NCBI GenBank assembly: GCA_964552045.1
Contig: CAZKFF010000001.1
Location: 64,120 to 128,119 of the forward strand
Length of the DNA: 64,000 nt
Source: an uncultured Candidatus Saccharibacteria bacterium
Lineage (GTDB): Bacteria > Patescibacteriota > Minisyncoccia > Phycocordibacterales > UBA918
Direction: 5' to 3'
Part shown: one piece after another, positions 4,337 through 54,500 of the stretch
Layout of the letters: every line of letters starts with the position of its first letter
Numbering within the stretch: position 1 is the first letter of the stretch
The notes under the pieces: model-generated
The model's input: the letters and a program-made list of their open reading frames with translations, nothing else
Databases searched by the model: none
Told to the model about the DNA's origin: nothing
Made by a program: the position numbers and the translations under genes

Positions 4337-6613
4337 TTATTTGGCGACAGTGACCGCCTCCTCAAACTTTACCGACAGCAGTTTCGAGACCCCGTCGCCA
4401 CCCATAGTAACGCCGTAGAGTATGCCGGCGCGACTCATGGTCTCGCGGTTGTGCGTAATGAGGATAAGCTGCGACTTCTCCGCAAGCGCCTCGATCATGT
4501 CGCCGTAGCGCCGCGAATTTGCCTCATCAAGTGCCGCATCGGTCTCATCAAGAATGATGAACAGAGGGGGGTTGACCTGGCTCATGGCGAAAATAAGCGC
4601 GATGGAAGTAAGTGCCCGCTCCCCTCCGGAAAGCATATCCAAGCCCCGCACGCGCTTGTTGGGAAGTTTGACGTCAAGCTCGATCCCTTCCTGTACCAGC
4701 TCATCCTCTTCCCCCGCTGCTGGAGCCGTTTCTTCCTCACCTTCTTCAAGTTCATCGTTCTGTTTGCGGATCTTCGGCTTCACACGGAGGAGTTTTGCCT
4801 CACCGCCCCCGAACATCAGCGCGAAGAACCGGTTGAACTCAGCTCCGATCTTTTCAATGCCGGCGACAAACTCGCTATTGAGCGAAGCAGTGAGTTCCGC
4901 GATGAGTTCCTCGAGCTTTGTGATGGAGGCTTCCAGATCGGCTATTTCCCGAACCAGGAATTCATCACGGCCTTTCACTTCCTTGTATTCCTTCTCGACA
5001 TCCTGATCAACGCCGCCAAGCTCTTCAAGGCGTATCTTGAGCTTCTCAAGCTCATGCCGGCGATCCTTCTGCACCTGCCGATCTTCGCTGACTATCTCTT
5101 TGGTACCGACCGGCTTCCCATCCTTCTCTATCTCAAGAGTGAAATATTTTGATGCGCCGCTGCCGATCAGTGCCACCGCCTCCTGCAGTTCCCGTTTGAA
5201 TTCATTGCGGTCACGTTCAAGCGCACCCAATTCTGCATCAATGCGGGAGATGAGATTTTCGCATTCGCGCTGCTCTCCGATGATACGGAACACTTCCCGC
5301 TCGGCATCCCGGCTCTCCGATTGCTCTGCCTCAATGGACCGCCGTATCTCTTCATATGCGGAGGTCAGTTCTGACTCCTCTTTCTCAATATGGACTATGC
5401 GGCTTTCGCATTCCTGTTGTTCCACCTCCAGATCCTGAAGCTCCTTTTCCTCATCCTTGGTGCTCCCGGCAGCAGACCCGGACGCATGCTGCAGCAGTTT
5501 CCGCAACATATGCACCATATCGGCAAACGACCGACGCAGAAAATGGAGGTCTTCACTTGCTGCCGCCTTCTGTGCGGCCACCTCGATCGCATCGAGTACT
5601 TTTTTGAATTCACTGCCCGGAACGGGAGCAACCTCTTCCTGCGCATGTTTCTCTTTCATCTGGGTAATGCGGCGCTTCAGGAAGAGCACCTGTCCCTCCA
5701 CCGTCCCGCTCTTGCGCAACAGTTCCTGGCGCTTCTTGCGCACAGCCGATATCTTTTCTTCAAGGTCCATCAGCGTCTTGCTCTTCTCGTCATTCTCGCT
5801 TGCAGCGAGCACTGACTTTGCTTTGCCCAGTTCCTGGGTAAGCGCGTGGAGCTTCTGCGTCGGCTCATCCTTCTGTGCGGTAAGCCTGTCGTGATGGAAT
5901 GCTATATACGTGTCCTCACGTTTGAGATATTCCGCATACACTGCCGTCAACTCCTGCCGCAGCTGCAAGGCACGCTCTATCTTCTTCAATTGCCGCTCCA
6001 AAAACTGCAGATGTGGCGCGACCTCGCGGCGCAGCGACTGCACCCGCCCAACGTTTTCACGGGTTTTCTCCAGTTTCCTTTCTGCCTCGTTCTTCTTGTA
6101 TTGATATACCTTCAGCCCCAAAGCATCCTCGATCATTTCTCTGCGCTCCTGGTTTGAAGCTGAAAGGATGCGGTCCGCCTCACCCTGGGAAATGATATGG
6201 TGGCCTGTTGAACCAATATTTGCTGCAGCGAGCAGCTCCTGAACGTCTTTCAGGCGGACCTTCGAGCTATTGATTGCATACTCATTGGTACCGTCGCGGT
6301 TGACCGTACGTTCAATGAGGATCTCATCGAAATCCATCTGGAACACTCTTTGTGTGTTGTCGAGGACCACACTGACCTGCGCACGGTTGCCGCGTGAGAC
6401 GCTGTCCGAGCCGTTGAATATGAGGTCCTCACCTCTCTTGCCGCGCATCGATTTTATGGATTGCTCACCCAATACAAAGCGAAACGCTTCAGCGACATTT
6501 GACTTGCCAGAACCATTTGGACCCACGATCGCAGTTATGGGCGCACTGAATTCAAGCTCGCTCTTCTTAGCAAATGATTTGAAACCACTGATTGTGAGGT
6601 GTTTAAGATACAT
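4337..6613 (-). CDS. smc: chromosome segregation protein SMC (short form, 758 aa)
   Basis: N-terminal Walker A FKSF...GPNGSGKSN. Long coiled-coil middle. C-terminal signature LSGGERALTSIALIFA and Walker B LFIILDETDAALD. Confidence 0.85.
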   Translation of the reverse strand: MYLKHLTISGFKSFAKKSELEFSAPITAIVGPNGSGKSNVAEAFRFVLGEQSIKSMRGKRGEDLIFNGSDSVSRGNRAQVSVVLDNTQRVFQMDFDEILIERTVNRDGTNEYAINSSKVRLKDVQELLAAANIGSTGHHIISQGEADRILSASNQERREMIEDALGLKVYQYKKNEAERKLEKTRENVGRVQSLRREVAPHLQFLERQLKKIERALQLRQELTAVYAEYLKREDTYIAFHHDRLTAQKDEPTQKLHALTQELGKAKSVLAASENDEKSKTLMDLEEKISAVRKKRQELLRKSGTVEGQVLFLKRRITQMKEKHAQEEVAPVPGSEFKKVLDAIEVAAQKAAASEDLHFLRRSFADMVHMLRKLLQHASGSAAGSTKDEEKELQDLEVEQQECESRIVHIEKEESELTSAYEEIRRSIEAEQSESRDAEREVFRIIGEQRECENLISRIDAELGALERDRNEFKRELQEAVALIGSGASKYFTLEIEKDGKPVGTKEIVSEDRQVQKDRRHELEKLKIRLEELGGVDQDVEKEYKEVKGRDEFLVREIADLEASITKLEELIAELTASLNSEFVAGIEKIGAEFNRFFALMFGGGEAKLLRVKPKIRKQNDELEEGEEETAPAAGEEDELVQEGIELDVKLPNKRVRGLDMLSGGERALTSIALIFAMSQVNPPLFIILDETDAALDEANSRRYGDMIEALAEKSQLILITHNRETMSRAGILYGVTMGGDGVSKLLSVKFEEAVTVAK

Positions 6614-6633
6614 TGCAGCTGGTCCGCTCCACC

Positions 6634-7497
6634 TTAATTGACAAAGATGATATACGCATCGTCAAGGTCGATCTCATCATTGATCCAATTGTATGCTCCC
6701 TGCGTGTAATAGGAACTCTGGGTGTAGTAAGACGTCTGGGTGTAGTAGGATGTCTGCGCATAATAATTTCCCTGGATGTAGTACGAGGTCTGCGCATAAT
6801 ATGAAGTCTGCGTGTAGTACGAGGTCTGCATATAGTACGAAGACTGCATGTAGTATGAACTCTGTACATAGTACGAACCCTGGGCATAGTACCCGGATTG
6901 TGAGTAGTACCCGCTTTGGCTGTAGTAGCCTGATTGCGAGTAGTACCCACTTTGGCTGTAGTACCCGCTCTGACCATAGTAGCCGCTCTGCCGATAGTAT
7001 CCTGACTGTGAGTAATACCCGCTCTGGCCGTAACCCGCATACGCAACCGGCAGGAACGAATCGTCTTCAAGGTTAAGCTCTTCTTCCCCGCATACATCGG
7101 TGTAGTTCCCGTTCCCTTCAGACTCCATGTTCTGGACAATGATGACATCCCTGGTTTCGCCATTGCATTCAAAATCAGAGAAATACCAATATCCGTAGTT
7201 GCTTTTATCTCCGAGTGGGTCTTTGTTTATTTCAGGCAAGAACGGAGCAAGTTCGTCATCGATCGCCTCCCCTACGCCTATCTCTACCCCGTCGCTGAAT
7301 TCAGGGTATTCACCGTTCGCTTCTTTGTAGAGGCGAACCCCGAGCTTGAGCTGTTCAAGGTCATTCACCCGCGCTGTATCACGCGCTTCTTTCCGTGCGT
7401 TGCTGAAAACAGTGAAGGCAAGCACTGCCAGAGTAATGATGATGCCGACAACAGTCATCACTTCAACAAGTGTAAAACCTGTTCTTCTCATTAGCAC
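6634..7497 (-). CDS. type IV pilin-like protein with C-terminal Tyr-rich pentapeptide repeat
   Basis: N-terminal class III (prepilin) signal RRTGFTLVEVMTVVGIIITLAVLAF. Conserved pilin-like core shared with the neighbouring gene. About 23 tandem copies of S-G/S/T-YY-x-Q. Confidence 0.75.
   Translation of the reverse strand: MLMRRTGFTLVEVMTVVGIIITLAVLAFTVFSNARKEARDTARVNDLEQLKLGVRLYKEANGEYPEFSDGVEIGVGEAIDDELAPFLPEINKDPLGDKSNYGYWYFSDFECNGETRDVIIVQNMESEGNGNYTDVCGEEELNLEDDSFLPVAYAGYGQSGYYSQSGYYRQSGYYGQSGYYSQSGYYSQSGYYSQSGYYSQSGYYAQGSYYVQSSYYMQSSYYMQTSYYTQTSYYAQTSYYIQGNYYAQTSYYTQTSYYTQSSYYTQGAYNWINDEIDLDDAYIIFVN
6690..7045 (-). repeat. 15-nt periodic coding repeat encoding (S-x-Y-Y-x-Q)n
   Basis: Visible 15-bp periodicity gtagta...ctg..., with synonymous and near-synonymous variation between units. 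Confidence 0.8.
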
Positions 7498-7543
7498 AAT
7501 AATATCATCCGTAGAGCACTAAAAAAGAGCGACCGGGGGAATA

Positions 7544-8032
7544 TCAGTCCTTCAGTACGATAATGTACGACCCTGACCCTGCCACGGTCGCATCGGGACT
7601 TGCATCTGTACAAACAGTTGCAAAGTTCGCGTTCTTTGAAAGTTCCATGTTGCGGGCAAAAATGACATGCTGGCCGGATTCAGAACAGGTGAAATCAGAA
7701 TCGTACCAGTAGCTGTATTGGGTGCCCTCCGCTGCCCGCTTCGGATCACTGTAGATATTGCCGTTGAAAAGCCGGATATCGTCATCGAGATCACCGCCCA
7801 TCCCGATTTCAACCCCATTATCGAACGATGGGTAATCCCTGTATTTCTCCTTATAGAGCGTGAGGGCGAACTGGATATTGGTCAGATCAGAGACACGTTT
7901 TTCTTCGCGCGTTTTCTGCCGTGCCTGGGACATCGAGGCAAGCACGATGGTGAGTATGATCATGATGAGAGCGATCACAACCGCAAGTTCAACAAGTGTG
8001 AACCCGTCTTTTGTCTTCGCAATCTGTCGCAT
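7544..8032 (-). CDS. type IV pilin-like / pseudopilin protein
   Basis: 162 aa. N-terminal KDGFTLVELAVVIALIMIILTIV (G|FTLVE prepilin cleavage/methylation motif). Core paralogous to the 6634..7497 gene (YP-FxxGVEIG-G...YWY-SDF-C). Confidence 0.75.
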   Translation of the reverse strand: MRQIAKTKDGFTLVELAVVIALIMIILTIVLASMSQARQKTREEKRVSDLTNIQFALTLYKEKYRDYPSFDNGVEIGMGGDLDDDIRLFNGNIYSDPKRAAEGTQYSYWYDSDFTCSESGQHVIFARNMELSKNANFATVCTDASPDATVAGSGSYIIVLKD

Positions 8033-8098
8033 GCCTTAATCCTATCATGCACTTACTGTGCAAAACTGAGATAGCCACCAGGCCCAAGGCTGCATAAT

Positions 8099-8821
8099 TT
8101 ACCAGCCTTTCTGCTCGATCGCTTTCAGCGCTGCTTCCTGTTCAGCCTCCTGTTTCGCCCGTCCCTTCCCTTCGCCTACCTTTTCTTTCCCGAGAAAAAC
8201 GCCAACAGTGAATACGCGGTCATGGTCTGGTCCTTCCTGGCTGAGCGTAGCATAGGTCGGCGTCAGGTTTGTGTGTTCCTGCGCCAGCTCCTGAAACCTG
8301 CTTTTTGGATCTTGCCACAGGCGCTTCTCCACTATCTCATCAGTTTTGCTGAACAACTGATCAGCGATGAATTTCTGGGCGATGCCGTACCCCTGATCCA
8401 CGTACAAAGCTCCAATGAATGCTTCGAATGCATTTGCCAGAATATACTGCCGTGCTCTTCCAACATCCTTTGATTCGCCTTTGGACATCAGGAGATAATC
8501 ATTGACGCCGAGCTTCGTCGAGGCATTGGAAAGCGAGACCGTATTGACAAGCGCCGACCTGATGGCGGTAAGCTCGCCTTCCGGCTTATCTGGATACTTG
8601 CGGAACAGGAAATCCGTCACCACAAGCTCCAACACTGCATCCCCAAGGAATTCGAGCCGTTCGTTGTGGTCTTGCTTAGCATCGCGGTGCTCATTGAGAT
8701 ACGAACGGTGTGTTATGGCGGTCAACAGGTGCATTTTGTCATTGAACACAAAACCGAGCACGCGTTCAAGTGCGAGCAGGTCAGCTTCAATGTTCCGTTC
8801 ATCGCTTTCTTTTTGAGCCAT
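8099..8821 (-). CDS. rnc: ribonuclease III
   Basis: RNase III signature ERLEFLGDAVLELVVTDFLF. C-terminal dsRBD with a KAKQEAEQEAALKAIE-like tail. Confidence 0.9.
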   Translation of the reverse strand: MAQKESDERNIEADLLALERVLGFVFNDKMHLLTAITHRSYLNEHRDAKQDHNERLEFLGDAVLELVVTDFLFRKYPDKPEGELTAIRSALVNTVSLSNASTKLGVNDYLLMSKGESKDVGRARQYILANAFEAFIGALYVDQGYGIAQKFIADQLFSKTDEIVEKRLWQDPKSRFQELAQEHTNLTPTYATLSQEGPDHDRVFTVGVFLGKEKVGEGKGRAKQEAEQEAALKAIEQKGW

Positions 8822-19313: not shown

Positions 19314-20039
19314 TTATCCGATGATCTTTATCGCTTTCATGATCGCCATCTTTACCGCATACTCCTCGTCAGTATACGTCCCGTCGAGCGCTGAAGTGAG
19401 CGCCCTGAGTATCTCCTGCAGCTGCTCCTCAGAAAGGCGGGAGCCTTCCTTTTTGAGCATCTCTGAAATGGCGGGGTCTTCCCCTTTCTTGAAGCGGTAG
19501 AGAGCATCAAGATCGGTGGTGGCATCCGCAAGCGCCACCATAGGACGATTACTGATCATCGTATATGAAGCGGTCGTATTTCCGGCAAGGATCGCCTCTG
19601 CGAGTGACCCCGATGTTATCGGCTCCTGGGAAAGGTCGATAGCCGTATCTGCTGTCATCTCTCCTTCTTCGGTATCCATTTCTGAAAGCAGCGTTTCCAT
19701 ACGCGCGAGATTGACGACCACCCACCCGTCTTCACTTGGGAACGATATCCGCGCTTGAGCGAGCACAGTATCGAGTGCTGAACCGCGCGCATCCTCTGAC
19801 GGTACCTTCCCGATGAAATAGCGCATCGCATCACTTGAGAGGAGTACCTTTTGCGCATGTGCCTGGTTCTCAAGCGAGGTAAGGGCGGCATCCTCGCTTG
19901 CAGGACTCATCGTATCGAAGTCGAATGCTCCTGTGGGCAGATCAACCGGACCCGCTGCAGCGTGTGTGACGGAATCAAGGTACGCTTCGGCGACCGGGGA
20001 TGCCCCCTCTACGCTTACATCAGTGTACGTGGTGTGCAC
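19314..20039 (-). CDS. acidic hypothetical protein, last gene of the sortase cluster
   Basis: 241 aa. GTG start with a GGGAG RBS 4 nt upstream. Begins 20 nt after the stop of the sorted surface protein. Asp/Glu-rich. Confidence 0.5.
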   Translation of the reverse strand: MHTTYTDVSVEGASPVAEAYLDSVTHAAAGPVDLPTGAFDFDTMSPASEDAALTSLENQAHAQKVLLSSDAMRYFIGKVPSEDARGSALDTVLAQARISFPSEDGWVVVNLARMETLLSEMDTEEGEMTADTAIDLSQEPITSGSLAEAILAGNTTASYTMISNRPMVALADATTDLDALYRFKKGEDPAISEMLKKEGSRLSEEQLQEILRALTSALDGTYTDEEYAVKMAIMKAIKIIG

Positions 20040-20059: not shown

Positions 20060-21211
20060 CTAAGAAACCTTTTTTTTTATGACAACAATGTATGCTACGA
20101 AGAGTGCCCAGAGGGTGAGGAGACCGTAGAAGATGAAAGTGAGCACTGGACCGGCTTCAAATCCCGTATAGGGAACTTCCGTCAGGTAAATACTTCCGAC
20201 AACCGGCTTCTGATCGCGCGTCTCAAGAACGATGATCTCGCCCTCTACTTCTACTTCAACTTTACAGGTTCTATCCTTGCTGCCTCGCTCCGCTTCGAGC
20301 GTATAGGTAGTATCCTTTGTTGGACGCAGCTTGATCTCGCCGTCAAGGAAGTCCTTCTTATCCCTGCTTGAGAGATCATCGGTATCAACAAGCGTATTGC
20401 CGTGATTGTCCTTCAGAAGGATGTCGTACGCATTGGTAGTTTCCCACTCTAGCGTTATTTCTTTCCCCCTCTTTATTTTTTTCGCAGAGATGTCGAGATC
20501 ACACTTCGGCGTCTTTGATCCGCCTCCTCCGTATGAACCCTGTGAATAGTACGAACTCTGGCTGTAATTGTTATATGAGCCCTGCGAATAGTAACTGCTC
20601 TGGGAGTAGTAACTGCTTTGAGAATATGACGGCTCATCCACGACTACCTTAGCATTGCAGGTATCGTCATCACCGGTACCTTCGGCGGTGAGCTGGAAGG
20701 TCGTATCGTCTGTAACATGGACAACCTTTGTCCCGTTAGCATTCACTTCGCCAACGCCATTATCAATGGTGACTTTCGTTGCATTCGTGGTCTTCCAGGT
20801 GAGGGTCACATCGCCGCCGCCATTCGGAAGCGAAGATGGAGAGGCGGTAAAGAGATCACAGGATGCATTCGATACATATGACGACTGCGAATAGTACGAA
20901 CTTTGAGAGTAATAAGAACTCTGGGAGTAGTAGGAACTCTGAGAATAGTAATCACTCTGGGAGTAGTAGCTTCCCTGCGAGTAGTAGCTGCTCTGAGAAT
21001 AGTAATCGCTCTGAGAGTAATAAGAACTCTGGGAATAGTAATCGCTCTGAGAATAGTAATCGCTTTGCGAGTAACAACTGCCACAGCTGGTCTGAGCCTC
21101 TGCTGTACCCAGCAAAAGCGGAGAACCGGCGACATAGCTCAGTATCCCGAACACTGCAAAAAATACCAGTGCAGCGATAAGTGTCTTGTTGATTAATGTT
21201 GTCATATACAT
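20060..21211 (-). CDS. sortase-substrate surface protein with Tyr-rich repeats and two Cys-bounded beta-domains
   Basis: Signal peptide MTTLINKTLIAALVFFAVFGILSYVAGS. (S-D/S-YY-S-Q)n repeat blocks. C-terminal sorting signal VPYTG, then the hydrophobic stretch FEAGPVLTFIFYGLLTLWALFVAYIVVI, then KKK. The ORF track extends to 21382, but that start overlaps the upstream gene. Confidence 0.65.
   Translation of the reverse strand: MYMTTLINKTLIAALVFFAVFGILSYVAGSPLLLGTAEAQTSCGSCYSQSDYYSQSDYYSQSSYYSQSDYYSQSSYYSQGSYYSQSDYYSQSSYYSQSSYYSQSSYYSQSSYVSNASCDLFTASPSSLPNGGGDVTLTWKTTNATKVTIDNGVGEVNANGTKVVHVTDDTTFQLTAEGTGDDDTCNAKVVVDEPSYSQSSYYSQSSYYSQGSYNNYSQSSYYSQGSYGGGGSKTPKCDLDISAKKIKRGKEITLEWETTNAYDILLKDNHGNTLVDTDDLSSRDKKDFLDGEIKLRPTKDTTYTLEAERGSKDRTCKVEVEVEGEIIVLETRDQKPVVGSIYLTEVPYTGFEAGPVLTFIFYGLLTLWALFVAYIVVIKKKVS
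20512..20640 (-). repeat. coding repeat (S-S-Y-Y-S-Q)n block 2
   Basis: Second, shorter block of the same pentapeptide repeat: SYSQSSYYSQSSYYSQGSY... Confidence 0.75.
20863..21073 (-). repeat. coding repeat (S-D/S-Y-Y-S-Q)n block 1
   Basis: About 14 tandem 15-nt units. Confidence 0.8.
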
Positions 21212-22123: not shown

Positions 22124-22807
22124 TTAGAGCTTTTTGGTCTCAATAAGAGACGCCTCAACGACGAAACGGTCGTCTTTTGAGCCGAAACTGTTGCAGGTTG
22201 CAAGCGTCAGCTTTGCCTTCCCCGGAGTTGCAGGCACAGCGACTTCACTCGCTTTTGCCTTGTACACATTCTGGACGCGATAAATATACTCCGCATCTGC
22301 AGAACGGACGCGGATCGTGTCTCCCCAGACCAGATTCTGGATACCGTTGAAAGCCTGAAAATTCTTGTTGAAGACAGTCGGCAGATAGCTCGAATGCCCG
22401 AGGATGAACATATTGCCCTTGGTCGTAAGATCAGCTGAATCAGGATGGCGCACAGCGCCGGAAAGAAGTGCAGCATCAAGGTCCGCAACTTCATCGGAAT
22501 CCGGGTTGAGTACGGGCACTTCTTTGCCCAGTGAATCGAATATGATGCTTGTCGGCAGCGCTGAGTGCGGTTCTTCTTCAACCACGGCAACTACGCGTTC
22601 TTCTGCTGGCTCTGTGTCCGATTCTTCAATCATCTCCGTATCTGTATCTTCTGTGGAGGCATCAGCTTTGTGCGGCTCAGGATAAAAATCAAGCGCAAAT
22701 AAAAGCCCGTACGTCATGAGCACGACGATGAAGAACACCACGAGAAATGGCGCACGGTTGACCTTTATTTGAGCATAGAGCTCTTCAAACAATTCACGTA
22801 TGTCCAT
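22124..22807 (-). CDS. sortase (transpeptidase) family protein
   Basis: N-terminal TM anchor. Catalytic His context NMFILGHS and the conserved TLxTC block KLTLATCNSF. Confidence 0.75.
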   Translation of the reverse strand: MDIRELFEELYAQIKVNRAPFLVVFFIVVLMTYGLLFALDFYPEPHKADASTEDTDTEMIEESDTEPAEERVVAVVEEEPHSALPTSIIFDSLGKEVPVLNPDSDEVADLDAALLSGAVRHPDSADLTTKGNMFILGHSSYLPTVFNKNFQAFNGIQNLVWGDTIRVRSADAEYIYRVQNVYKAKASEVAVPATPGKAKLTLATCNSFGSKDDRFVVEASLIETKKL

Positions 22808-23038
22808 AAAATAGTCACGACATAATACATTATTTTTGTCAAAAGTCAACCCTTTCCTGTTCAGGTGAAGGTTGACACTAGCTACATAATATGATATGGT
22901 TCATGTGTACTATTCCAATCGGCAATTGGATCTCGTTCTCACTACTTTTGCGTCCTTTTCCCTCAGTGTATGGGGGCTTTTGTGCAATTGCATTGAGGCG
23001 GCGGCGTACGATAACGTTAGTAATAGTTTTTAATTTTT

Positions 23039-25495: not shown

Positions 25496-27598
25496 TTAGA
25501 TATCCAGGTTTGCAGTGTGGGCGTTTGACTGGATGAACAGCTTTCGGCTTTCCACATCCGTTCCCATCAGTATATCAAATACTTTGTCAGCTTCCTGCGC
25601 ATCTTCAATGGTGACCTGCCTGAGAATGCGGTTCTCAGGATTCATCGTAGTCTCCCAGAGCTCTTCGGCATTCATTTCGCCGAGGCCTTTGTACCGTTGA
25701 ATGCGGAACTTCGTGCCGCCCTTCTTCGCGGCTTCTTCCTCAGGCTCCTCATCAGCTTCCTCCTCCGTTGATTCGTCCTGCGCAATCTCATCGAGCGCTG
25801 ACGCCTCTTCACCGACAATATCGAATTTTTCCTGGTCGGAATATGCGTATGAGGTCATCTTGCCCTGCTGAATCTTGTACAGAGGAGGTTGCGCGATATA
25901 GATATATCCTTCTTCAATGAGCGGACGGAAATAGCGGTAGAAAAGTGTCAACAGAAGCGTGCGGATATGCGCTCCGTCCACGTCCGCATCAGTTGCGATG
26001 ATGATCTTGTGGTAACGCAGTTTCGAAAGATCGAACACGTCGCCGATGGCCGTCCCCAATGCAATGACAAGGTTCTTGATCTGTTCGGACACGAGCATCT
26101 TATCAATGCGCGCGCGTTCCACATTGAGGATCTTGCCGCGCAACGGCAGGATCGCCTGCGTACGCCGGTCACGGCCCATCTTCGCAGAACCTCCCGCAGA
26201 GTCTCCCTCCACGATGAAGAGCTCGGATTCCTCTGCACTCTTGGTCTGACAGTCCGCAAGTTTTCCCGGCAGCGACATGCCCTCAAGCGCACCCTTGCGC
26301 AATACCGAATCTTTTGCCGCTTTTGCAGCCTTTCGCGCTTTCACAGCGATAATCACCTTGTTGATGATCGCTTTGGCATCATCGGGATTCTCCTCAAGAT
26401 ATTCGGTGAACGCCTCTCCGAAAATGGTCTCAACGGCGCTGCGCGCTTCGACGCTGCCAAGTTTGCCTTTGGTTTGTCCTTCAAATTGGATCTCCGGCAT
26501 TTTCACTGACACAACTGCAGTGATCCCCTCGAGCACATCGTCTCCGGTAAAGCCGGCGTCCTTATCCTTCTCTTTGAAGAAATTGTTCTTTTTTGCGTAA
26601 TTGTTGAGCGTGCGGGTGAGGGCTGTCTTAAAACCCGTTATGTGCGTTCCATGCTCAGGGTTGTAAATATTGTTCGCAAAGGCGGAGATGCGCGACTGAA
26701 TGTCATCGACGTACTGCAGCGCGACCTCAACGGACATGACCGGACCCTCCATGCTGTTCTTCTCAACGTAGAAGATATTCTTGTGGACTGGCTTTTGATA
26801 CTGGTTGTTGAACGCGACAAGTGATTTCAGCCCCCCCTCGAAGTAGAAGGACATGCTCGGAACCTCAAGATGCTCGTCGGCGAGGTAGATGACCTCAGCG
26901 ATGCTGTTGGCATCAAGTCTCGCCTGGCTTTCGCGTGCATCAAGCACGGTCATGTGCAGTCCTTTCACGAGATACGCCTGCTGGCGCAGATGTCCGACGA
27001 TACGCTTCCAGTCATACTTGATCTCAGGGAAGATCGCCGGATCGGCCTGGAACAAGACGATCGATCCATTGAACGACGTCGCGCTCAATTTCTTGACCTT
27101 CGCCTTTGCCTTGCCGATAGCGTATTCCTGCATGTAGTGGCCGCCGTCCTTGTGCACGTCAACGCGCATATGTGTTGAAAGTGCATTCACCACCGACGCG
27201 CCGACGCCATGGAGTCCGCCGGAAACTTTGTAGCCCGTCCCTTCGCCGCCGAACTTGCCGCCGGCATGGAGCGTAGTCATGATCGTCTCAAGCGCGGAGA
27301 CCTTCGTCTGCTTATGGATATCGACAGGAATGCCGCGGCCGTTGTCAACCACGCGGATATAATTGTCCGGCAGCAGCGCCACTTCGACACGATTGGCAAA
27401 ACCACCCATCGCCTCGTCGCGTGAGTTGTCGAATATTTCCCAGATCAGGTGATGAAGGCCATCGAGACCGGTGGTACCGATGTACATTCCTGGACGTTTG
27501 CGCACCGGTTCCAGCCCTTCGAGTACGGAGATTGAAGAGGCATCATATCCGCTCTTTTTTTTGGCATCCTTCTGTGCAGCTACTTTTTTTACAGGCAT
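25496..27598 (-). CDS. gyrB: type IIA topoisomerase ATPase subunit (GyrB/ParE family, most likely DNA gyrase B)
   Basis: GHKL ATPase domain (LHHLIWEIFDNSRDEAMGG, GLHGVGASVVNALS), a TOPRIM domain, and a C-terminal tail ending EELWETTMNP... Confidence 0.85.
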   Translation of the reverse strand: MPVKKVAAQKDAKKKSGYDASSISVLEGLEPVRKRPGMYIGTTGLDGLHHLIWEIFDNSRDEAMGGFANRVEVALLPDNYIRVVDNGRGIPVDIHKQTKVSALETIMTTLHAGGKFGGEGTGYKVSGGLHGVGASVVNALSTHMRVDVHKDGGHYMQEYAIGKAKAKVKKLSATSFNGSIVLFQADPAIFPEIKYDWKRIVGHLRQQAYLVKGLHMTVLDARESQARLDANSIAEVIYLADEHLEVPSMSFYFEGGLKSLVAFNNQYQKPVHKNIFYVEKNSMEGPVMSVEVALQYVDDIQSRISAFANNIYNPEHGTHITGFKTALTRTLNNYAKKNNFFKEKDKDAGFTGDDVLEGITAVVSVKMPEIQFEGQTKGKLGSVEARSAVETIFGEAFTEYLEENPDDAKAIINKVIIAVKARKAAKAAKDSVLRKGALEGMSLPGKLADCQTKSAEESELFIVEGDSAGGSAKMGRDRRTQAILPLRGKILNVERARIDKMLVSEQIKNLVIALGTAIGDVFDLSKLRYHKIIIATDADVDGAHIRTLLLTLFYRYFRPLIEEGYIYIAQPPLYKIQQGKMTSYAYSDQEKFDIVGEEASALDEIAQDESTEEEADEEPEEEAAKKGGTKFRIQRYKGLGEMNAEELWETTMNPENRILRQVTIEDAQEADKVFDILMGTDVESRKLFIQSNAHTANLDI

Positions 27599-49119: not shown

Positions 49120-50355
49120 TTATGTCTCCTGCGAGGTCGGCAAGACCTTGACCGTTGCCTCAGCCGATCGCGTTGTGGAGCCAAGTGTGCATTCGAGCGT
49201 GTACGTTGATTCCGAAGTGATGCCGACCACTGTTCCCTCTCCTTTAACCTCTGTTACAGACATGCCAGGGCCTTTCACGGTACAATTTTCCGCATTGCCT
49301 CCGTCCCAAGTGACCGTCACCTCACCTCCATAACGGATAAGTCCAGGCACAGCACTGATAGATATGTTGGACATCGTCAATGGATTATCTACCGCACAAG
49401 ACAAGTAGGTATATGCGCTGCTGCCGGAAAGTGTACCGTCGGTACAGGTACGGTTTATTGAGCTGCATGTTTCGCCGTCCGGAACCAGATTTTCATCGTA
49501 CAGTTTGCGGGTCGAACCATCGGCTATAGTGACGCCATTGACCGAACAATCTCTTTTGACCGTCGGGGTCGGCGACGAAGGCTGCGCTGGCGTCTGCGTT
49601 GCTGGTGTCGGGGTTGTCTTTGGAGTTGTTTTCGGCGTCGGTGCCGGGTCAATGGTACATGAGGAGTACTTGAACTTGTTCTTTCCGGAAAGATCGCCAT
49701 CGTCACATGTGCGTTTTATGAATTCGCATGTCTTTCCATAGTCAACATTCCGGTCCTTGTAGAATTTCCTCGATTTCCCGTCCTTTACCGTGACGCCATC
49801 AAGTTTGCAATCCTTCGGTTTTTCGCACACGAGCTCAGTGGTGCTCCAGGAGAAGAAGAATAATTGGTGCTTTACTGTCTTCTGTTCGCACCAGCTCTCC
49901 TTATAACAGGTTCCTTGGTAGAGGACGTATCCATTTTTACATTGCGGCGTCGGTGTGCGGGGTGTGGGATTATTCGGCGTCGGATCATCATTATTCAAAC
50001 CACAGGGGTCGTTTGGACCAGAACAGGCACTCGGTGTGCCACCATATGAGGCCTCTGAGGGACTCTGCGAGTATGAACCCTGACGGTAATATGAACTCTG
50101 CGAATACCCACTGGGAAGTGTCGCAGATATGGGCGAGGGAACGCCGAAACCTGTATCTGTTCCGGTTAAACCACCCGCATTGCATGACGGACAGCCCGAA
50201 TCAGAGAGTGCACCCGATGGATTGCCCGCCGTGCCACTATTGACCAGTGCCCGCTGATCCTCGTCGGTAAGCCGCGCGTTAGCAATTATGGGCATCGCGT
50301 ATAGCAATACGAGGGCGAAGCAAATGTAAACGTACGGACGTAAATATTTATTCAT
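49120..50355 (-). CDS. secreted Cys-rich protein with tandem Cys-bounded domains, Pro/Thr linkers and a short Tyr-rich S-Y-Y-x-Q segment
   Basis: Signal peptide MNKYLRPYVYICFALVLLYAMPIIANA. SGYSQSSYYRQGSYSQS. Two homologous modules C..DGVT..DG..RK.Y.....G.TC....RTC.DG.LSG. Linker TPKTTPKTTPTPATQTPAQP. C-terminal beta-domain ending C-T-L-G. Confidence 0.55.
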   Translation of the reverse strand: MNKYLRPYVYICFALVLLYAMPIIANARLTDEDQRALVNSGTAGNPSGALSDSGCPSCNAGGLTGTDTGFGVPSPISATLPSGYSQSSYYRQGSYSQSPSEASYGGTPSACSGPNDPCGLNNDDPTPNNPTPRTPTPQCKNGYVLYQGTCYKESWCEQKTVKHQLFFFSWSTTELVCEKPKDCKLDGVTVKDGKSRKFYKDRNVDYGKTCEFIKRTCDDGDLSGKNKFKYSSCTIDPAPTPKTTPKTTPTPATQTPAQPSSPTPTVKRDCSVNGVTIADGSTRKLYDENLVPDGETCSSINRTCTDGTLSGSSAYTYLSCAVDNPLTMSNISISAVPGLIRYGGEVTVTWDGGNAENCTVKGPGMSVTEVKGEGTVVGITSESTYTLECTLGSTTRSAEATVKVLPTSQET

Positions 50356-50366
50356 ATGATCAGGGG

Positions 50367-51440
50367 TTATTCGATCCAGTCACTTACAATGATACTCGAC
50401 TGCGGGAATGCATTGAGCGGTGTCACGGTAGTCACCACTCCGGAAAGCAAGTTCAAAAGTGTCAGTCTCCTATTTTCTGCTTCCGCTCCTGATGCTGGTG
50501 CCCAATCGACCTGTTCGAACGCAAGCCATTGGCTGTCCGGAGAAAAGACCGGCCAGAAAGCCTGTATATCATGAACCTCGCTTTCTCCCAGCGTGAACGG
50601 AGCCCATGAGGTGATGGCAGATACCGATACTGTCTGCACGAATGCATCGGTCATAGCCAGCATTTTCCCATCCGGAGATATATCGAACATGCGTTCAGTC
50701 GAAACCAGATTTTCATCCAAAACTACAGCGAGTCTGTCCTGTTTGTTTGTCACGGAGTACGCATGCACACCGTCATTCGCCAGATAAACAATCTGCGAAC
50801 CATCCGGAGAGAAGCGCGCATTATACCCGTGCGCTATAAATTGCGGTTCTTGTACATCCTGCACCAGATATATGCTCCAAGTGCTCGGCAAGTAGTACGC
50901 TTTTGTGTCTGTCGATTTCTCGGGCGGAACTTCGAAAGTGTATGACGCGCCTGTTGGTGCCTGCCGGACATTCCAGAAAGGTCTCTGTGCTGTTGTGGAC
51001 GCATACAAGACCTCATCACCGAGAGTGTCTTTAAGGGTACGGAACACAGCTACTTCGGGCGTGGCGCTCTTTACGAGAAAACCTGACCCAAGTGCGGTCT
51101 GTTTGTCGTTTGACACACTTGGCATGAAGTAATTGAAGAGTGAACGTTCGAGAGTTGACTTACCCAGGTCGAAGACAGCGAATATCGTTCCACTCGCATG
51201 TGGTTCCTGCAGGTTAAGCAGTATCTGACCCGACGGTGGCTCCATAGACTCTTCTGGAAGATCTGTATCCTCATCCATTTCAGAATACGTGTTCGTGAGT
51301 ACTGGCCCGGCAGGATTCCAGACGATCTTGATACCGATCACAATAGAAAGCAGGAGCAGAAACAACAAGAAGCATACGAGAACTATACCCAAGATGTTGC
51401 GTGTGGGCTCTTGCGGCTCTCGTGTATAGAGAAGGCTCAT
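50367..51440 (-). CDS. membrane-anchored PD40/TolB-like beta-propeller repeat protein
   Basis: TM ILGIVLVCFLLFLLLLSIVIGI. Repeated F/I-SPDG-x-x-L/I blades (FSPDGSQIVYL, ISPDGKMLAM, FSPDSQWLAF). Confidence 0.6.
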   Translation of the reverse strand: MSLLYTREPQEPTRNILGIVLVCFLLFLLLLSIVIGIKIVWNPAGPVLTNTYSEMDEDTDLPEESMEPPSGQILLNLQEPHASGTIFAVFDLGKSTLERSLFNYFMPSVSNDKQTALGSGFLVKSATPEVAVFRTLKDTLGDEVLYASTTAQRPFWNVRQAPTGASYTFEVPPEKSTDTKAYYLPSTWSIYLVQDVQEPQFIAHGYNARFSPDGSQIVYLANDGVHAYSVTNKQDRLAVVLDENLVSTERMFDISPDGKMLAMTDAFVQTVSVSAITSWAPFTLGESEVHDIQAFWPVFSPDSQWLAFEQVDWAPASGAEAENRRLTLLNLLSGVVTTVTPLNAFPQSSIIVSDWIE

Positions 51441-51599
51441 AAAGTATGTAGCGCACCTACAGACAGCACAATCAATGATAAGCATCGCTGTGGGTATTCT
51501 GCATCTGCGCTTAAACTCTCCCTATAGTATAAGCCACATCCCTAACTCATGCGCTGTAAAAGGAAGGGCGGATGTGGATTACTCCCAAAGTGAGTGGGG

Positions 51600-54500
51600 C
51601 TATATTTCGCCGCCGCCGCCGCCACCGCCGCCGCCTGCCTGGGTATACGGCTTTACCTGAATGGCATCGACCTTGACCGTATTCTGATCCGGCTGGTCAA
51701 TGACACGGACGAAGAAGTTGCCGCCTGAGAGGTCACTTGGACTCCAGCTGCGGCCCCAGGTATCGGACGCACCGCCGAGCGTATAGACTGCGTCGCTTCC
51801 CGTGAGCACGGATGTTGCCTTTGTCGCCGTCACACTTTCGTCGCCATTCCAGGAAAGTGCCACCTGAATCGTTCCCGCCCCGGTTGAACCGGACGCTTCA
51901 AGCTTCACTTCGATACCGGTCACCGTATTCCCTGCCGGCACATTGAAGCCGAAGACACTGTACGACTGACGAAGGTCCGCCGATGCAGCCGTTGCGTAGA
52001 CGTCGTCGGAGGTAAGCGCATTGCTGCCGTTTGTCCACTCATTGTAGAGTTCTCCGGTTGCGGTCGGCGCTTTGAAGCCGGGTTCGTTGCCAATCTGCTC
52101 TCCATTATCCTCTTCCCCTACTCCGCCGCCGCCGTTGTTGCCGCCGCCGCCGATGTCACCATCACCTTCTGGTGCATCGTCTCCCACTTCAGCGCTGAAG
52201 AGACTGCCGCCGCCCTTATTGCCGCCGCGGATATGCTGCACTGAGGTCACACCTCCGAGCGGGACAACAACTCCTTCAGTCGTCGCGCCCGTGCCGGTAA
52301 CACCGTTACGATTGAGGTCAATGGTCAGATACTCATTGGTATGTACGCCCGTGACATCTCCCGTAAGGACATAGTCTTTGGTCGTCGTTGCATCCCATGA
52401 TGTTGAGAATGTTATTGTCCCTGATTGTCCCGTGATGGCTAACACGCCAGTGCCGCCGATCTGGTTGTCAGAAGCGTCTGCCGTACCGTTGCTGTTATTG
52501 TCGCGGTAGAGCTTAAAGTCCCCAATATTACTGCTATCGATACGATGGATGCCGGAGAGTGTAAATACAGCTGACGTGATCGTTGCATTCTCTCCAACAG
52601 GTGCAAGATTAAAGGCAAACAATGGTTCGTCGCTCTTGTTCTGGTAGCTGAATGCATTGTCGATCTGACCAGCGGTGTGATCTGCAAGGTTTGCTGCACC
52701 ATAGATAGCCACAGTCTTATCATCATGAACGCCAGTAGCTGCCACAGGATCAAGTGTATAAGCGTTGATATCGTCACCCGTATAACCCATCACATAGAGC
52801 GTGGTACCGTCGTTGTTGAAGAGTGCCGCAGCAGGAGCAGATTCCTGTGCGGCGACCGAGAACGCGATCTCGTCGAAGGTCGCCGTTGAGATGTCGTACG
52901 GAGTGGAGAGCGTATAGGCATTGATGTCTTGTCCTGTTAAGCCCACAACATACAATACAGTACCGGTGTTGTTGAAGAATATATCAGAGGGGGCGTTTTC
53001 TTCTGAAAGGACCGAGAACGCGATCTCGTCGAAGGTCGCCGTTGAGATGTCGTACGGAGTGGAGAGCGTATAGGCATTGATCTCCCCACCAGATGCTTGC
53101 ACAACATACAGGACGGTACCGGTGTTGTTGAATTCCATATCATAGGGGAAGGATCCCTCTGCCGAAACCGAGAACGCGATCTCGTCGAAGGTCGCCGTTG
53201 AGATGTCATACGGAGTGGAGAGCGTATAGGTATTGATGTCGAGACCAGAAGTACCCATCACATAAAGAACGGTGCCGGTGTTATTGAAGAGCATTGAACG
53301 GGGGTTGATTTCCTGTGCGGCGACCGAGAGAGCGATCTCGTCGAAGGTGGCAGTTGAGATGTCATACGGAGTGGAGAGCGTATAGGCATTGATGTCATCA
53401 CCGGTAGAACCCATCACATAGAGCGTGGTACCGTTGTTGTTGAAGAGCATTGCACGAGGAGCGTCTTCTTGTGAAGAGACAGAAAGGGAGATTCCATTGA
53501 AGATGGCAGTTGAGACATCGTATGAACCTGACTCTTGATCAACAACAAACGACAGCGTCGATGTTGGCGCAGCAAGTGCGTTAAATTGTGTAAATGAAAG
53601 CCCCGAAATAGTGAGGGTATCCCCTCCTGAGAAGTCATTCGAGACGGGTACGACGAGTGTGGCACCGCTGTCCTCATACGAAACAGGATTAGAGACTTTG
53701 CCTGAGGCGGTTCCTCCAAAGACTGCAGTGGTATCGGTCGTATCCCACTTCATATTTGTCTTTGTAGTGTCAATGGTAATACGAAGGTCATTCGCTGCCG
53801 TAATCGTCGGGGTCTCGGCGTCGGTTATGGTAATGGCGGCAATAGACGTGGTCGCCTGGCCGTATCCAAAGATCTGGTTCGATGCTGAGGAAATCGTCCC
53901 CGCCCCGCCTCCACCTGCTGGCGCTGTGATGTCCCAGCAGTCGTTATTGCCGCTGTCGGTCGAGCTGGCTGCAGTGATGGTGCTTGCGCTGTCGCATGCG
54001 TTTGAGTCCATCACATCGACATACGTAACGGATATCTGGGTATCTGCATCGAGGCCCCACTGGGTTCCGTCCTGTGTTGAACGGAGTACGATCTCGTCAT
54101 TCTCTGCGCCGTCTATCTGTATAGAGGCGAAGGTTGAGGTCGCATCCGCAGGGAATTCCAGAGTAATACCGGGAGTGATCGCTACCAATTTTGCAGCCTC
54201 TACCGGATCAGTGAAGGTGGTGACCGGAACTCCGCCAGTATTGCCGGGCGAAGTCATCACGAGATCGGTACCAGATTGCGCTACCGCAACAAACGTACCG
54301 TTGCCGTAGGTCACTGACCGCCAAGAACTCGCTGCTCCTTCTTGTCGAGCAGTCCACGTGATTCCGTCAGGCGAGGTCATCACTTGATCAGTGCCACCGA
54401 GAGATACCGCAACAAACAGGCCGTTGCCGTAGGAAACGGAATGCCAGAAGGAAGCTTCTGTCGCCGAATGCGAGGTCCACGTGATGCCGTCCTCTGAGCT

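Follow-up and report, generated by a model that had tools for sequence, protein, structure and literature searches.

A tyrosine-doublet hexapeptide module on secreted proteins of CPR/Patescibacteria: its host genes, distribution and possible roles

FUS-type prion-like domains, which are rich in Ser, Tyr, Gly and Gln and contain [G/S]Y[G/S] motifs, associate with themselves. The serine-rich repeat protein (SRRP) adhesins have repeats that resemble Ser-X dipeptides without Tyr, and they rely on glycosyltransferases of their own together with an accessory Sec system; both Ser-rich repeat stalks and glycosylated pilins are familiar structures, and the spacers of bacterial surface proteins are usually rich in Pro or in charged residues. 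Systems of the extensin, resilin or mussel type require a peroxidase, a laccase or a tyrosinase. Here we describe an uncharged hexapeptide with a Tyr doublet, x-x-Y-Y-x-Q (small-small-Tyr-Tyr-small-Gln), which is carried in frame by three genes for secreted proteins, all of them on the minus strand, in 64,000 nucleotides (nt) of DNA from an ultra-small, uncultured Candidatus Saccharibacteria bacterium (assembly GCA_964552045.1, contig CAZKFF010000001.1, positions 64,120 to 128,119; this whole stretch is hereafter called the window). We found no published description of the motif in the literature, Pfam, NCBIfam or PDB sequences. The module is a previously undescribed variety, with an unusual chemistry, of the low-complexity repeat linkers already known from bacterial surface proteins.

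The bacteria of the candidate phyla radiation (CPR, or Patescibacteria) represent a large share of bacterial diversity. To our knowledge, all the cultivated ones are attached to other microbes and the mode of attachment is largely obscure. Type IV pili are the best lead on this attachment so far (PMC11623550). A module found on pili, anchored proteins with immunoglobulin-like (Ig-like) domains, peptidases and Hint-domain proteins gives a concrete handle on CPR surface biology. Where CPR genomes are poorly annotated, searching for its motif is a simple way to pick out surface proteins, and the motif also points to an accompanying uncharacterised gene family. Furthermore, a hexapeptide that is uncharged and has 36% Tyr could interest designers of adhesive or conductive peptides.

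The repeat and the three genes that carry it

The consensus of the tandem hexapeptides is [S/G/A]-[S/T/A/G/Y/D/N]-Y-Y-[S/A/G/T]-Q. We counted 18 canonical units in a type IV pilin, 10 and 3 in an anchored protein, and one canonical plus two degenerate units in a Cys-rich secreted protein. A preliminary description of this DNA had listed these three sites, and each of them was found where it had been placed, on the minus strand and inside a real gene; the unit that it called a pentapeptide actually has a period of six residues, not five. The search for S.YY.Q that it proposed, run in six frames over the 64-kb window, gave matches confined to the three genes, so that in the window the motif is surface-specific and the suspicion of compositional noise was not borne out. 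Furthermore, a two-unit degenerate DNA pattern matched 27 times in the window against 0 times in 100 dinucleotide-preserving shuffles, and Tandem Repeats Finder reported periods of 18, 36 and 54 nt at both long arrays. Tyr makes up 3.3% of the residues in the window's genes as background. Over the repeat region, the three proteins had no match in Pfam or NCBIfam, and the PDB sequence matches returned by phmmer for the repeat, a chance Plasmodium MSP1 repeat (E 0.7) and TPR/antibody noise, were discarded.

The longest array belongs to a type IV pilin-like gene (6634-7497, minus strand, 287 aa). Its N-terminus is of the prepilin type, RTG/FTLVEVMTVVGIII, with the class III signal G/F-x-x-x-E (here G/FTLVE; the slash marks the junction) and a hydrophobic alpha-1 helix. 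The Pfam N_methyl match of this protein is weak (E=0.012, below the cut-off), its NCBIfam match is GspG-like (1.1e-7) and its orthologue P0098 carries PF07963. The array (6688-7044, minus strand) has a core of 18 canonical units (6700-7023), namely eight SGYY[S/R/G/A]Q units and then ten [G/S/T][S/N]YY[V/M/T/A/I]Q units, between degenerate edges with single Tyr. Beside this gene lies a paralogous pilin gene without the repeat (7544-8032, minus strand; Pfam N_methyl 5.7e-6), whose product is 38% identical to the array pilin (BLASTP 2e-33). The insert is absent from this paralogue and from four homologues of ~160 aa (P0105-P0108), and in the alignment the array stands out as ~125 extra residues that follow the second invariant Cys and precede the last beta-strand. 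Two cysteines, C111 and C136, are invariant in 8 homologues. The AlphaFold2 (AF2) model has an N-terminal helix at aa 10-61 and beta-strands, predicted with modest confidence, at 102-122 and 281-285; the pilin head, a globular beta-sheet with a conserved Cys pair, can thus be recognised.

The pilin pair, one with and one without the array, is located between the genes for SMC and RNase III (4337-8821, minus strand), and the order SMC, array pilin, RNase III is also found in the relatives L048 and L007. The first of them has an array-less pilin paralogue too (72% identical). The syntenic pilin of L007 is 41% identical and carries five units, compared with 16 in L048 and 18 in the window.

The second gene (20060-21205, minus strand) encodes 381 aa starting at MTTLINK, in an open frame that extends up to 21382. 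Its product is an anchored surface protein with two Ig-like domains, whose parts follow each other in the order signal peptide, array 1, Ig-like domain, array 2, Ig-like domain, VPYTG, transmembrane (TM) helix and KKKVS. Array 1 (20876-21073, minus strand), directly after the signal peptide, comprises 10 canonical units of the S[D/S]YYSQ type with a core at 20885-21064. Array 2 (20531-20629, minus strand) is the linker between the domains, YSQSSYYSQSSYYSQGSYNNYSQSSYYSQGSY. It contains 3 canonical units besides variants with a single Tyr, and GGGGS comes next; this second Tyr stretch of the protein reads YSQSSYYSQSSYYSQGSYNNYSQSSYYSQGSYGGGGS. AF2 modelled two beta-sandwiches with a predicted local distance difference test (pLDDT) score above 90 plus a C-terminal helix, and the best Foldseek matches of the model are tandem Ig domains.

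The C-terminal sequence of this protein is LTEVPYTGFEAGPVLTFIFYGLLTLWALFVAYIVVIKKKVS. Its tail of VPYTG, a 27-residue hydrophobic stretch and KKKVS is unique in the window, is non-canonical compared with LPXTG and matches no Pfam or NCBIfam anchor model. Across about 100 homologues, VPYTGFEAGP and the TM helix are nearly invariant. A sortase gene (22124-22849, minus strand; PF04203, 1.5e-18; weakly class E/D-like) lies two genes upstream. The synteny of the sortase and the anchored protein is kept in L031, L092 and L093, and distant homologues are still surrounded by the block gyrB ... sortase ... small open reading frame (ORF) ... anchored protein ... ThrRS ... DnaE. Because of this neighbouring sortase and the conserved synteny, it was reasonable to label the protein a sortase substrate, although the VPYTG motif departs from LPXTG; its anchoring would be either by the membrane or by the sortase.

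The anchored protein ends just past its basic tail and the closest homologues do the same. Many family members instead extend past the membrane segment into a domain that matches the next ORF of the window (19314-20039, minus strand), which ends ...TSALDGTYTDE..AVKMAIMKA; P0010, P0043 and P0052, among others, and the loci L092 and L093 were covered by this comparison. Therefore, the form in the window is a split version of a protein that is fused elsewhere.

Regarding other features of this family, the distant homologues P0073 and P0078 have other Tyr-rich N-terminal regions (YDYGGSDYGYYSS... and TYDYNAYDYSYTPY...) in place of the hexad array. Therefore, a Tyr-rich distal end recurs in at least two distant homologues, with a different exact repeat. 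A Cys/Gly cluster (CGSC, CCGGGG, CGGCG; 21070-21100, minus strand) separates the signal peptide from the first linker and is conserved in P0001 and P0003-P0007, and Cys residues bracket each Ig-like domain of the family. As for the neighbouring genes, the gyrB beside the syntenic block in L092 (L092:1-64, running off the locus) encodes 1,136 aa with an Intein_splicing match; the gyrB of the window (25496-27598) encodes 700 aa and has no intein.

The third gene (49120-50355, minus strand, 411 aa) encodes a Cys-rich secreted protein with a signal peptide and a C-terminal Ig-like domain. Its module (50062-50112, minus strand; SGYSQSSYYRQGSYSQS) is short or decayed, with one canonical unit, and aligns with the start of the array of P0140. 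Taken alone, this instance is present but marginal; nevertheless, homologues with full arrays lend it credibility. The C-terminal domain is homologous to those of P0103 (1e-32) and P0140 (1e-14), and full arrays, placed N-terminally behind the signal peptide, are found in P0103, P0140, P0162, P0201 and P0149; in the first four of them the arrays precede the shared C-terminal domain. Therefore, the short form would most simply be a minimal or decayed array. The three scaffolds had been presented as unrelated. They are indeed different, but a weak similarity links the C-terminal Ig-like domain of the Cys-rich protein to each of the two in the anchored protein (E 7e-6 and 2e-5).

On the minus strand, the Cys-rich gene comes after a giant ORF and a PD40 protein (50367-51485). 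The giant ORF (51600-62690, minus strand) encodes 3,696 aa, contains tandem DNA repeats of 123 nt and 156 nt (52756-53480, 54475-55091 and 61183-61445) and has Pfam matches of the beta-propeller type (EPTP, Lactonase and DUF6242).

Conservation and distribution of the arrays

We compared the DNA of the arrays with a null in which the same peptide is encoded by synonymous codons drawn at random. The pilin units have a DNA identity of 0.618 against 0.609 in the null (z=0.9) and use both AGY and TCN codons for Ser; actually, the Y, Y and Q are present in 18 of the 18 units. Since the synonymous sites are scrambled and Y-Y-Q is nevertheless intact, the pilin array is old and its peptide pattern is maintained by purifying selection. 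In the anchored protein the DNA identity between the array units is 0.749 against 0.634 in the null (z=5.8), with a 54-nt super-period, which points to some more recent intragenic duplication.

This retained similarity and its super-period speak for repeats that are compositional noise or recent products of replication slippage without function. However, neither the remainder of the window nor the shuffles contain the motif, the pilin array has kept its peptide pattern intact despite saturation at synonymous sites, the arrays are conserved in orthologues, and they are restricted to secreted proteins of one lineage. We therefore regard a functionless origin as extremely improbable. A slippage or contingency locus was also considered and rejected: the pilin units are too diverged (longest internal repeated word 17 nt, null 15) and the arrays are stable in orthologues.

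The preliminary description saw the module as an element moved between the loci. A recent movement finds no support, because no DNA is shared beyond what the reshuffling of synonymous codons gives: the longest word common to the pilin and anchored-protein arrays is 11 nt (null mean 13.8), the identity of units between the two loci is 0.625 (null 0.604) and the Ser codon classes at each position are mixed across genomes. Recent transfer is thus rejected by the codon-level comparison. The origin may be either an ancient spread or repeated independent expansion, which these data do not distinguish.

A close relative keeps the arrangement. In this metagenome-assembled genome (MAG), CBFGXL01, the anchored protein is 86% identical at the protein level and the flanking SMC and RNase III are 89-94% identical. 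The pilin and anchored-protein genes are arranged as in the window, and the arrays are conserved with only a few units gained or lost. In L031, the relative's ortholog has an array 2 peptide with a single changed residue (N/D).

In order to find the module elsewhere, we scanned one genome per species (185,579 species) with a four-unit degenerate DNA pattern, which yielded 89 loci. The flavour with small residues is carried by 58 ORFs: 43 come from MAGs labelled as CPR/Patescibacteria, 10 from unlabelled ones and 5 from MAGs with other labels, 3 of these last 5 being on contigs shorter than 20 kb. Several genomes have 2-4 array loci. A strongly hydrophobic segment lies within the first 90 residues in 45 of the 49 array ORFs with an intact 5' end, and the co-occurring Pfam domains are all of extracellular types (Bact_surface_Ig-like, PT-HINT/Hint, PG_binding_1, CARDB, PKD, Big_2, SpaA, T4SS pilin and N_methyl). 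The arrays occupy linker positions: they follow a signal peptide directly, separate Ig-like domains, form a surface loop in a pilin or make up a C-terminal tail.

With the pilin array as query, phmmer was run exhaustively over 1.84 billion cluster representatives and gave 107 matches at E ≤ 0.001. Around two dozen of them are true tandem arrays, and the remaining ones, other low-complexity proteins at ~20% identity, were set aside; the composition correction of HMMER probably masks shorter arrays. The scaffolds found in this way are a subtilisin-like peptidase with a peptidoglycan-binding domain, a large enzyme-like protein with FN3, a lamin-tail domain, small domains of the HPGRT...CHYCRTNC type, Hint domains, pilins and the Ig-like family of the window's third protein. 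Thus, the module is lineage-specific in CPR/Patescibacteria and sits on many secreted scaffolds. The idea of a modular low-complexity element on different scaffolds, specific to extracellular proteins, holds both in the window, with its three secreted genes, and among these genomes.

In the 824 units collected, the first residue is S, G or A, the second S, Y, T, A or G, the fifth S, A, G or T, and the sixth Q (93%) or E. Their residues are Y 36%, S 20%, Q 16%, G 10%, D+E 1.9%, K+R 0.3% and P 0.2%, and aliphatics are almost nil.

The matches of the DNA pattern outside CPR were set aside as well, since they are mostly other flavours (QPYYQQ, QGYYGQ, PVYYPQ, RYYQQQ) or tiny ORFs. Such flavours, including QNYYPQ, occur sporadically in proteobacterial, cyanobacterial and other non-CPR MAGs (loci L003, L015, L017, L018, L022, L034, L040, L055 and L077 among them), RYYQQQ being found in a short thaumarchaeal ORF of 66 aa (L077). 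They are probably unrelated low-complexity proteins rich in Gln and Pro.

In 4 of the 58 array ORFs, Hint or pretoxin-HINT domains begin directly after a C-terminal Tyr array (...YYAQGGY/CFAPDT...), as in P0087 and L082:3823-6819 (minus strand). To judge from this layout, the end of the array could be released or transferred by Hint chemistry.

Possible roles of the arrays

The low AF2 confidence suggests that the arrays are disordered (pLDDT ~25-35). In the pilin, aa 139-275 have a pLDDT of ~25-35 without secondary structure; in the anchored protein the score is ~30 over aa 27-108 (array 1) and below 50 over aa 194-227 (array 2). A folded repeat such as a beta-helix or solenoid was rejected on these grounds (pLDDT 25-35, no secondary structure). 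We also rejected the bacterial transferase hexapeptide repeat ([LIV]-[GAED]-x-x-[STAV]-x), since the module has almost no aliphatics and no Pfam match, and AF2 shows no helix or solenoid.

The role that we favour, as a serious candidate rather than a probable conclusion, is that of multivalent tethers in which Tyr residues act as stickers for adhesion or cohesion. The Tyr doublets would make contacts by pi-pi stacking, hydrogen bonds and CH-pi contacts with sugars, and the Ser, Gly and Gln residues would serve as spacers between them. Pili and anchored proteins displaying such arrays could adhere to each other, to a surface layer or to a host cell wall, and the arrays might also give the folded domains reach outward from the cell surface; in the pilin, each repeat-bearing subunit would expose a long Tyr-rich loop. 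The composition, which is like that of self-associating prion-like domains and not like Pro- or charge-rich spacers, supports this role. So do the linker positions with their predicted disorder, the selection on the peptide, the conservation in relatives and the presence on many extracellular scaffolds across the lineage, often several times per genome. Furthermore, the peptides SYSYSYS, NYNYNYN and GYGYGYG form amyloid-like fibrils under mild conditions (PMC11093263), a cement protein secreted by ticks condenses and adheres through periodic aromatic residues (PMC11794139), and Patescibacteria bind their hosts via type IV pili and cell-wall glycans (PMC11623550).

Several points weigh against adhesive tethers of this kind. 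The disorder is called from low AF2 confidence with shallow alignments (22 and 9 sequences). The strict Gln and the Tyr doublet, instead of scattered Tyr, hint at a more specific role, e.g. recognition by an enzyme. A sticky loop of ~120 residues might hinder pilus assembly, and the subunit may be a minor pilin. None of the pilus assembly genes PilB/C/D/M/N/O was found among the ~45 window ORFs scanned; the machinery may be encoded elsewhere in the genome. Finally, many array genes of other genomes adjoin a putative metal-binding family, which passive stickers leave unexplained.

Alternatively, the arrays could act only passively, as spacers or stalks that project or shield the folded domains and may carry O-glycans on Ser/Thr (or Tyr). 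Homologues of the anchored protein without arrays show Gly/Ser/Pro/Thr linkers at exactly the positions occupied by the arrays, P0010 being an intermediate form, and such a role also fits the disorder indicated by the AF2 scores and the drift of the unit number among the syntenic pilins (5, 16, 18). Moreover, a PMT_2-type glycosyltransferase lies near an array cluster in the relative, and pilin glycosylation has been discussed (PMC11623550). Nevertheless, a spacer has no need to keep the Tyr doublet and the Gln invariant from unit to unit or to exclude Pro and charge almost totally, plain linkers with 36% Tyr would be poorly soluble, and no glycosylation genes flank the three genes of the window. 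Therefore, we consider purely passive spacers rather unlikely.

Another explanation is that the arrays are functional amyloid or cross-beta segments that zip between molecules into fibres or a matrix. Judged from the sequence, the period of six residues is even, so that in an extended strand each face would bear one Tyr. The arrays are uncharged and Pro-free, with much Q, S and Y, and short (X-Tyr)n peptides yield amyloid-like fibrils (PMC11093263). However, neither Pfam, NCBIfam nor PDB sequences gave any similarity to known bacterial amyloid repeats or accessory genes, many arrays are short inter-domain linkers of 3-5 units, and AF2 shows no beta structure, although intermolecular amyloid is beyond AF2 modelling. 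We regard this explanation as quite improbable.

The last explanation arises from the neighbours of the arrays in other genomes. We clustered all the ORFs of 57 array loci from other genomes, and in 28 of the 57 we found an uncharacterised secreted Cys/His-rich family of 320-560 aa with 1-7 genes, usually 2-7 tandem paralogues. Members of the family occur, among other loci, in L004, L026, L028, L064, L081, L083, L091, L094, L096, L098, L099 and L100, of which L096, L098, L099 and L100 come from the reverse test described below. The long members start with a cupredoxin-like domain (PF13473, 2e-6; 'plastocyanin' in the sources) with the invariant H81, H84, H115 and H117; in the main domain H184, H188, H219 and C257-x-H-G-x-G-H-G are invariant, plus around ten Cys. 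No PDB relative was found by a profile search, and there is no curated model for the family, NCBIfam giving only a weak plastocyanin match.

The arrays might then be substrates or partners of an oxidative Tyr chemistry, in which this secreted metal-dependent (possibly copper) family would form dityrosine or DOPA-type cross-links and thus a hardened or adhesive coat. Besides the 28 loci with their tandem genes, 18 of the 58 array ORFs, on several unrelated scaffolds, have a family gene that starts at most 300 nt downstream on the same strand. The invariant residues, four His in the cupredoxin-like domain and C-x-H-G-x-G-H-G with three more His in the main domain, fit this idea, and the genome of the close relative holds a family cluster beside an array protein of ~875 aa, on another contig. 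In a reverse test, we took five family members on new long contigs as starting points. YYxQ hexad arrays lie just downstream in L096 and L099, and an eight-residue variant, STYYxYSQ, in L098; L100 has a GYTGG repeat instead and L097 ends at the contig edge. Thus, a YY-type array stood just downstream in 3 of the 4 informative loci.

On the other hand, the tyrosinase or peroxidase genes that the preliminary description suggested looking for were not found, nor was a laccase domain, among the ~45 window ORFs scanned against Pfam. A search of the 64-kb window with the family profile (hmmsearch) showed that the family is absent from it and hence adjoins none of the three genes. Furthermore, the cupredoxin-like domain, read from its sequence, is without the Cys and Met that serve as ligands in blue copper sites, neither a PDB relative nor a curated model nor a known function can be assigned to the family, and the co-location would fit a structural partnership equally well. 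On balance, oxidative cross-linking of the arrays appears unlikely, although not strongly so.

The association of the family with the arrays is real and apparently undescribed, and it is compatible with either a metal-dependent Tyr chemistry or a structural partnership. As a more speculative proposal, which we consider fairly unlikely, the arrays and the Cys/His-rich cupredoxin-like proteins together might be an unrecognised extracellular system of CPR, in which the Tyr doublets of pilins and anchored proteins would be oxidised or cross-linked by metal-dependent enzymes or by partners that coordinate metal, giving a glue or coat, hardened by covalent or coordinative bonds, that holds the episymbionts to their hosts; the window proteins would then be clients acted on in trans by a cluster located in another part of the genome. 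The roles considered here, i.e. adhesive tethers, cross-linking substrates, spacers and amyloid, as well as noise, are not mutually exclusive.

A further small scaffold was observed in L004:3916-4644, L008, L009, L026, L045, L064, L068 and L081. It consists of a signal peptide, a Tyr array and a domain of ~140 aa (...GSGSFVIDHPLDPKNKLLYHSFVESPDVKN...RVSWQVTGIRHDPY...) without Pfam or NCBIfam match, and its genes typically precede those of the Cys/His-rich family on the same strand.

Comparison with known systems

The SRRP adhesins of Gram-positive bacteria (GspB, Fap1, SraP) are anchored to the wall and share with the module short Ser-rich tandem repeats and long non-globular stretches; here, a putative sortase signal at the C-terminus and an adjacent sortase are present. 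However, the module is a Tyr-doublet hexapeptide and the candidate anchor motif is VPYTG, not LPXTG. No SecA2/Y2 or Gtf genes were found among the ~45 window ORFs scanned, which sets the locus apart from the SRRP systems.

The bacterial amyloids (CsgA, TasA, Fap and chaplins) are likewise secreted, rich in Gln, Ser and Gly and repetitive, with a possible role in a matrix, whereas their units are longer (~19-23 aa in CsgA) and have their own consensus, and they come with dedicated nucleator and secretion genes. The window proteins have no Pfam or NCBIfam match to curli, TasA, Fap or chaplins and no such relative among the PDB sequences.

The repeats of wheat high-molecular-weight glutenin (PGQGQQ / GYYPTSPQQ) are also short and in tandem, combine a Tyr doublet with Gln and act outside the cytoplasm. 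Nevertheless, they form Pro-rich beta-turn spirals in a plant storage protein, while Pro makes up 0.2% of the module.

The cross-linked Tyr-rich proteins, such as the plant extensins, resilin, the Bacillus spore-coat and the mussel foot proteins, resemble the module in the high Tyr density of their secreted repeats, and the metal-binding family next door in many genomes is a possible further likeness. The differences are that the module lacks the Pro/Hyp or Lys context and that no oxidising-enzyme domain was found here. If the arrays were indeed part of an oxidised glue, the system would be a bacterial counterpart of the Tyr chemistry of the mussel and extensin type.

Finally, the FUS-type domains share with the module a make-up of Ser, Tyr, Gly and Gln, few charged, Pro and aliphatic residues, a predicted disorder and regularly spaced Tyr as the likely interaction residue. 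In contrast, the module is bacterial and extracellular, keeps a strict period of six residues with Tyr doublets and has no sequence homology to them; moreover, the Tyr content of FUS is well below the ~36% of the module. The arrays, which are rich in Q, S, G and Y, poor in charge and aliphatics and predicted to be disordered, thus belong with the prion-like, FUS-type proteins as members of a compositional class and not of a homologous family.

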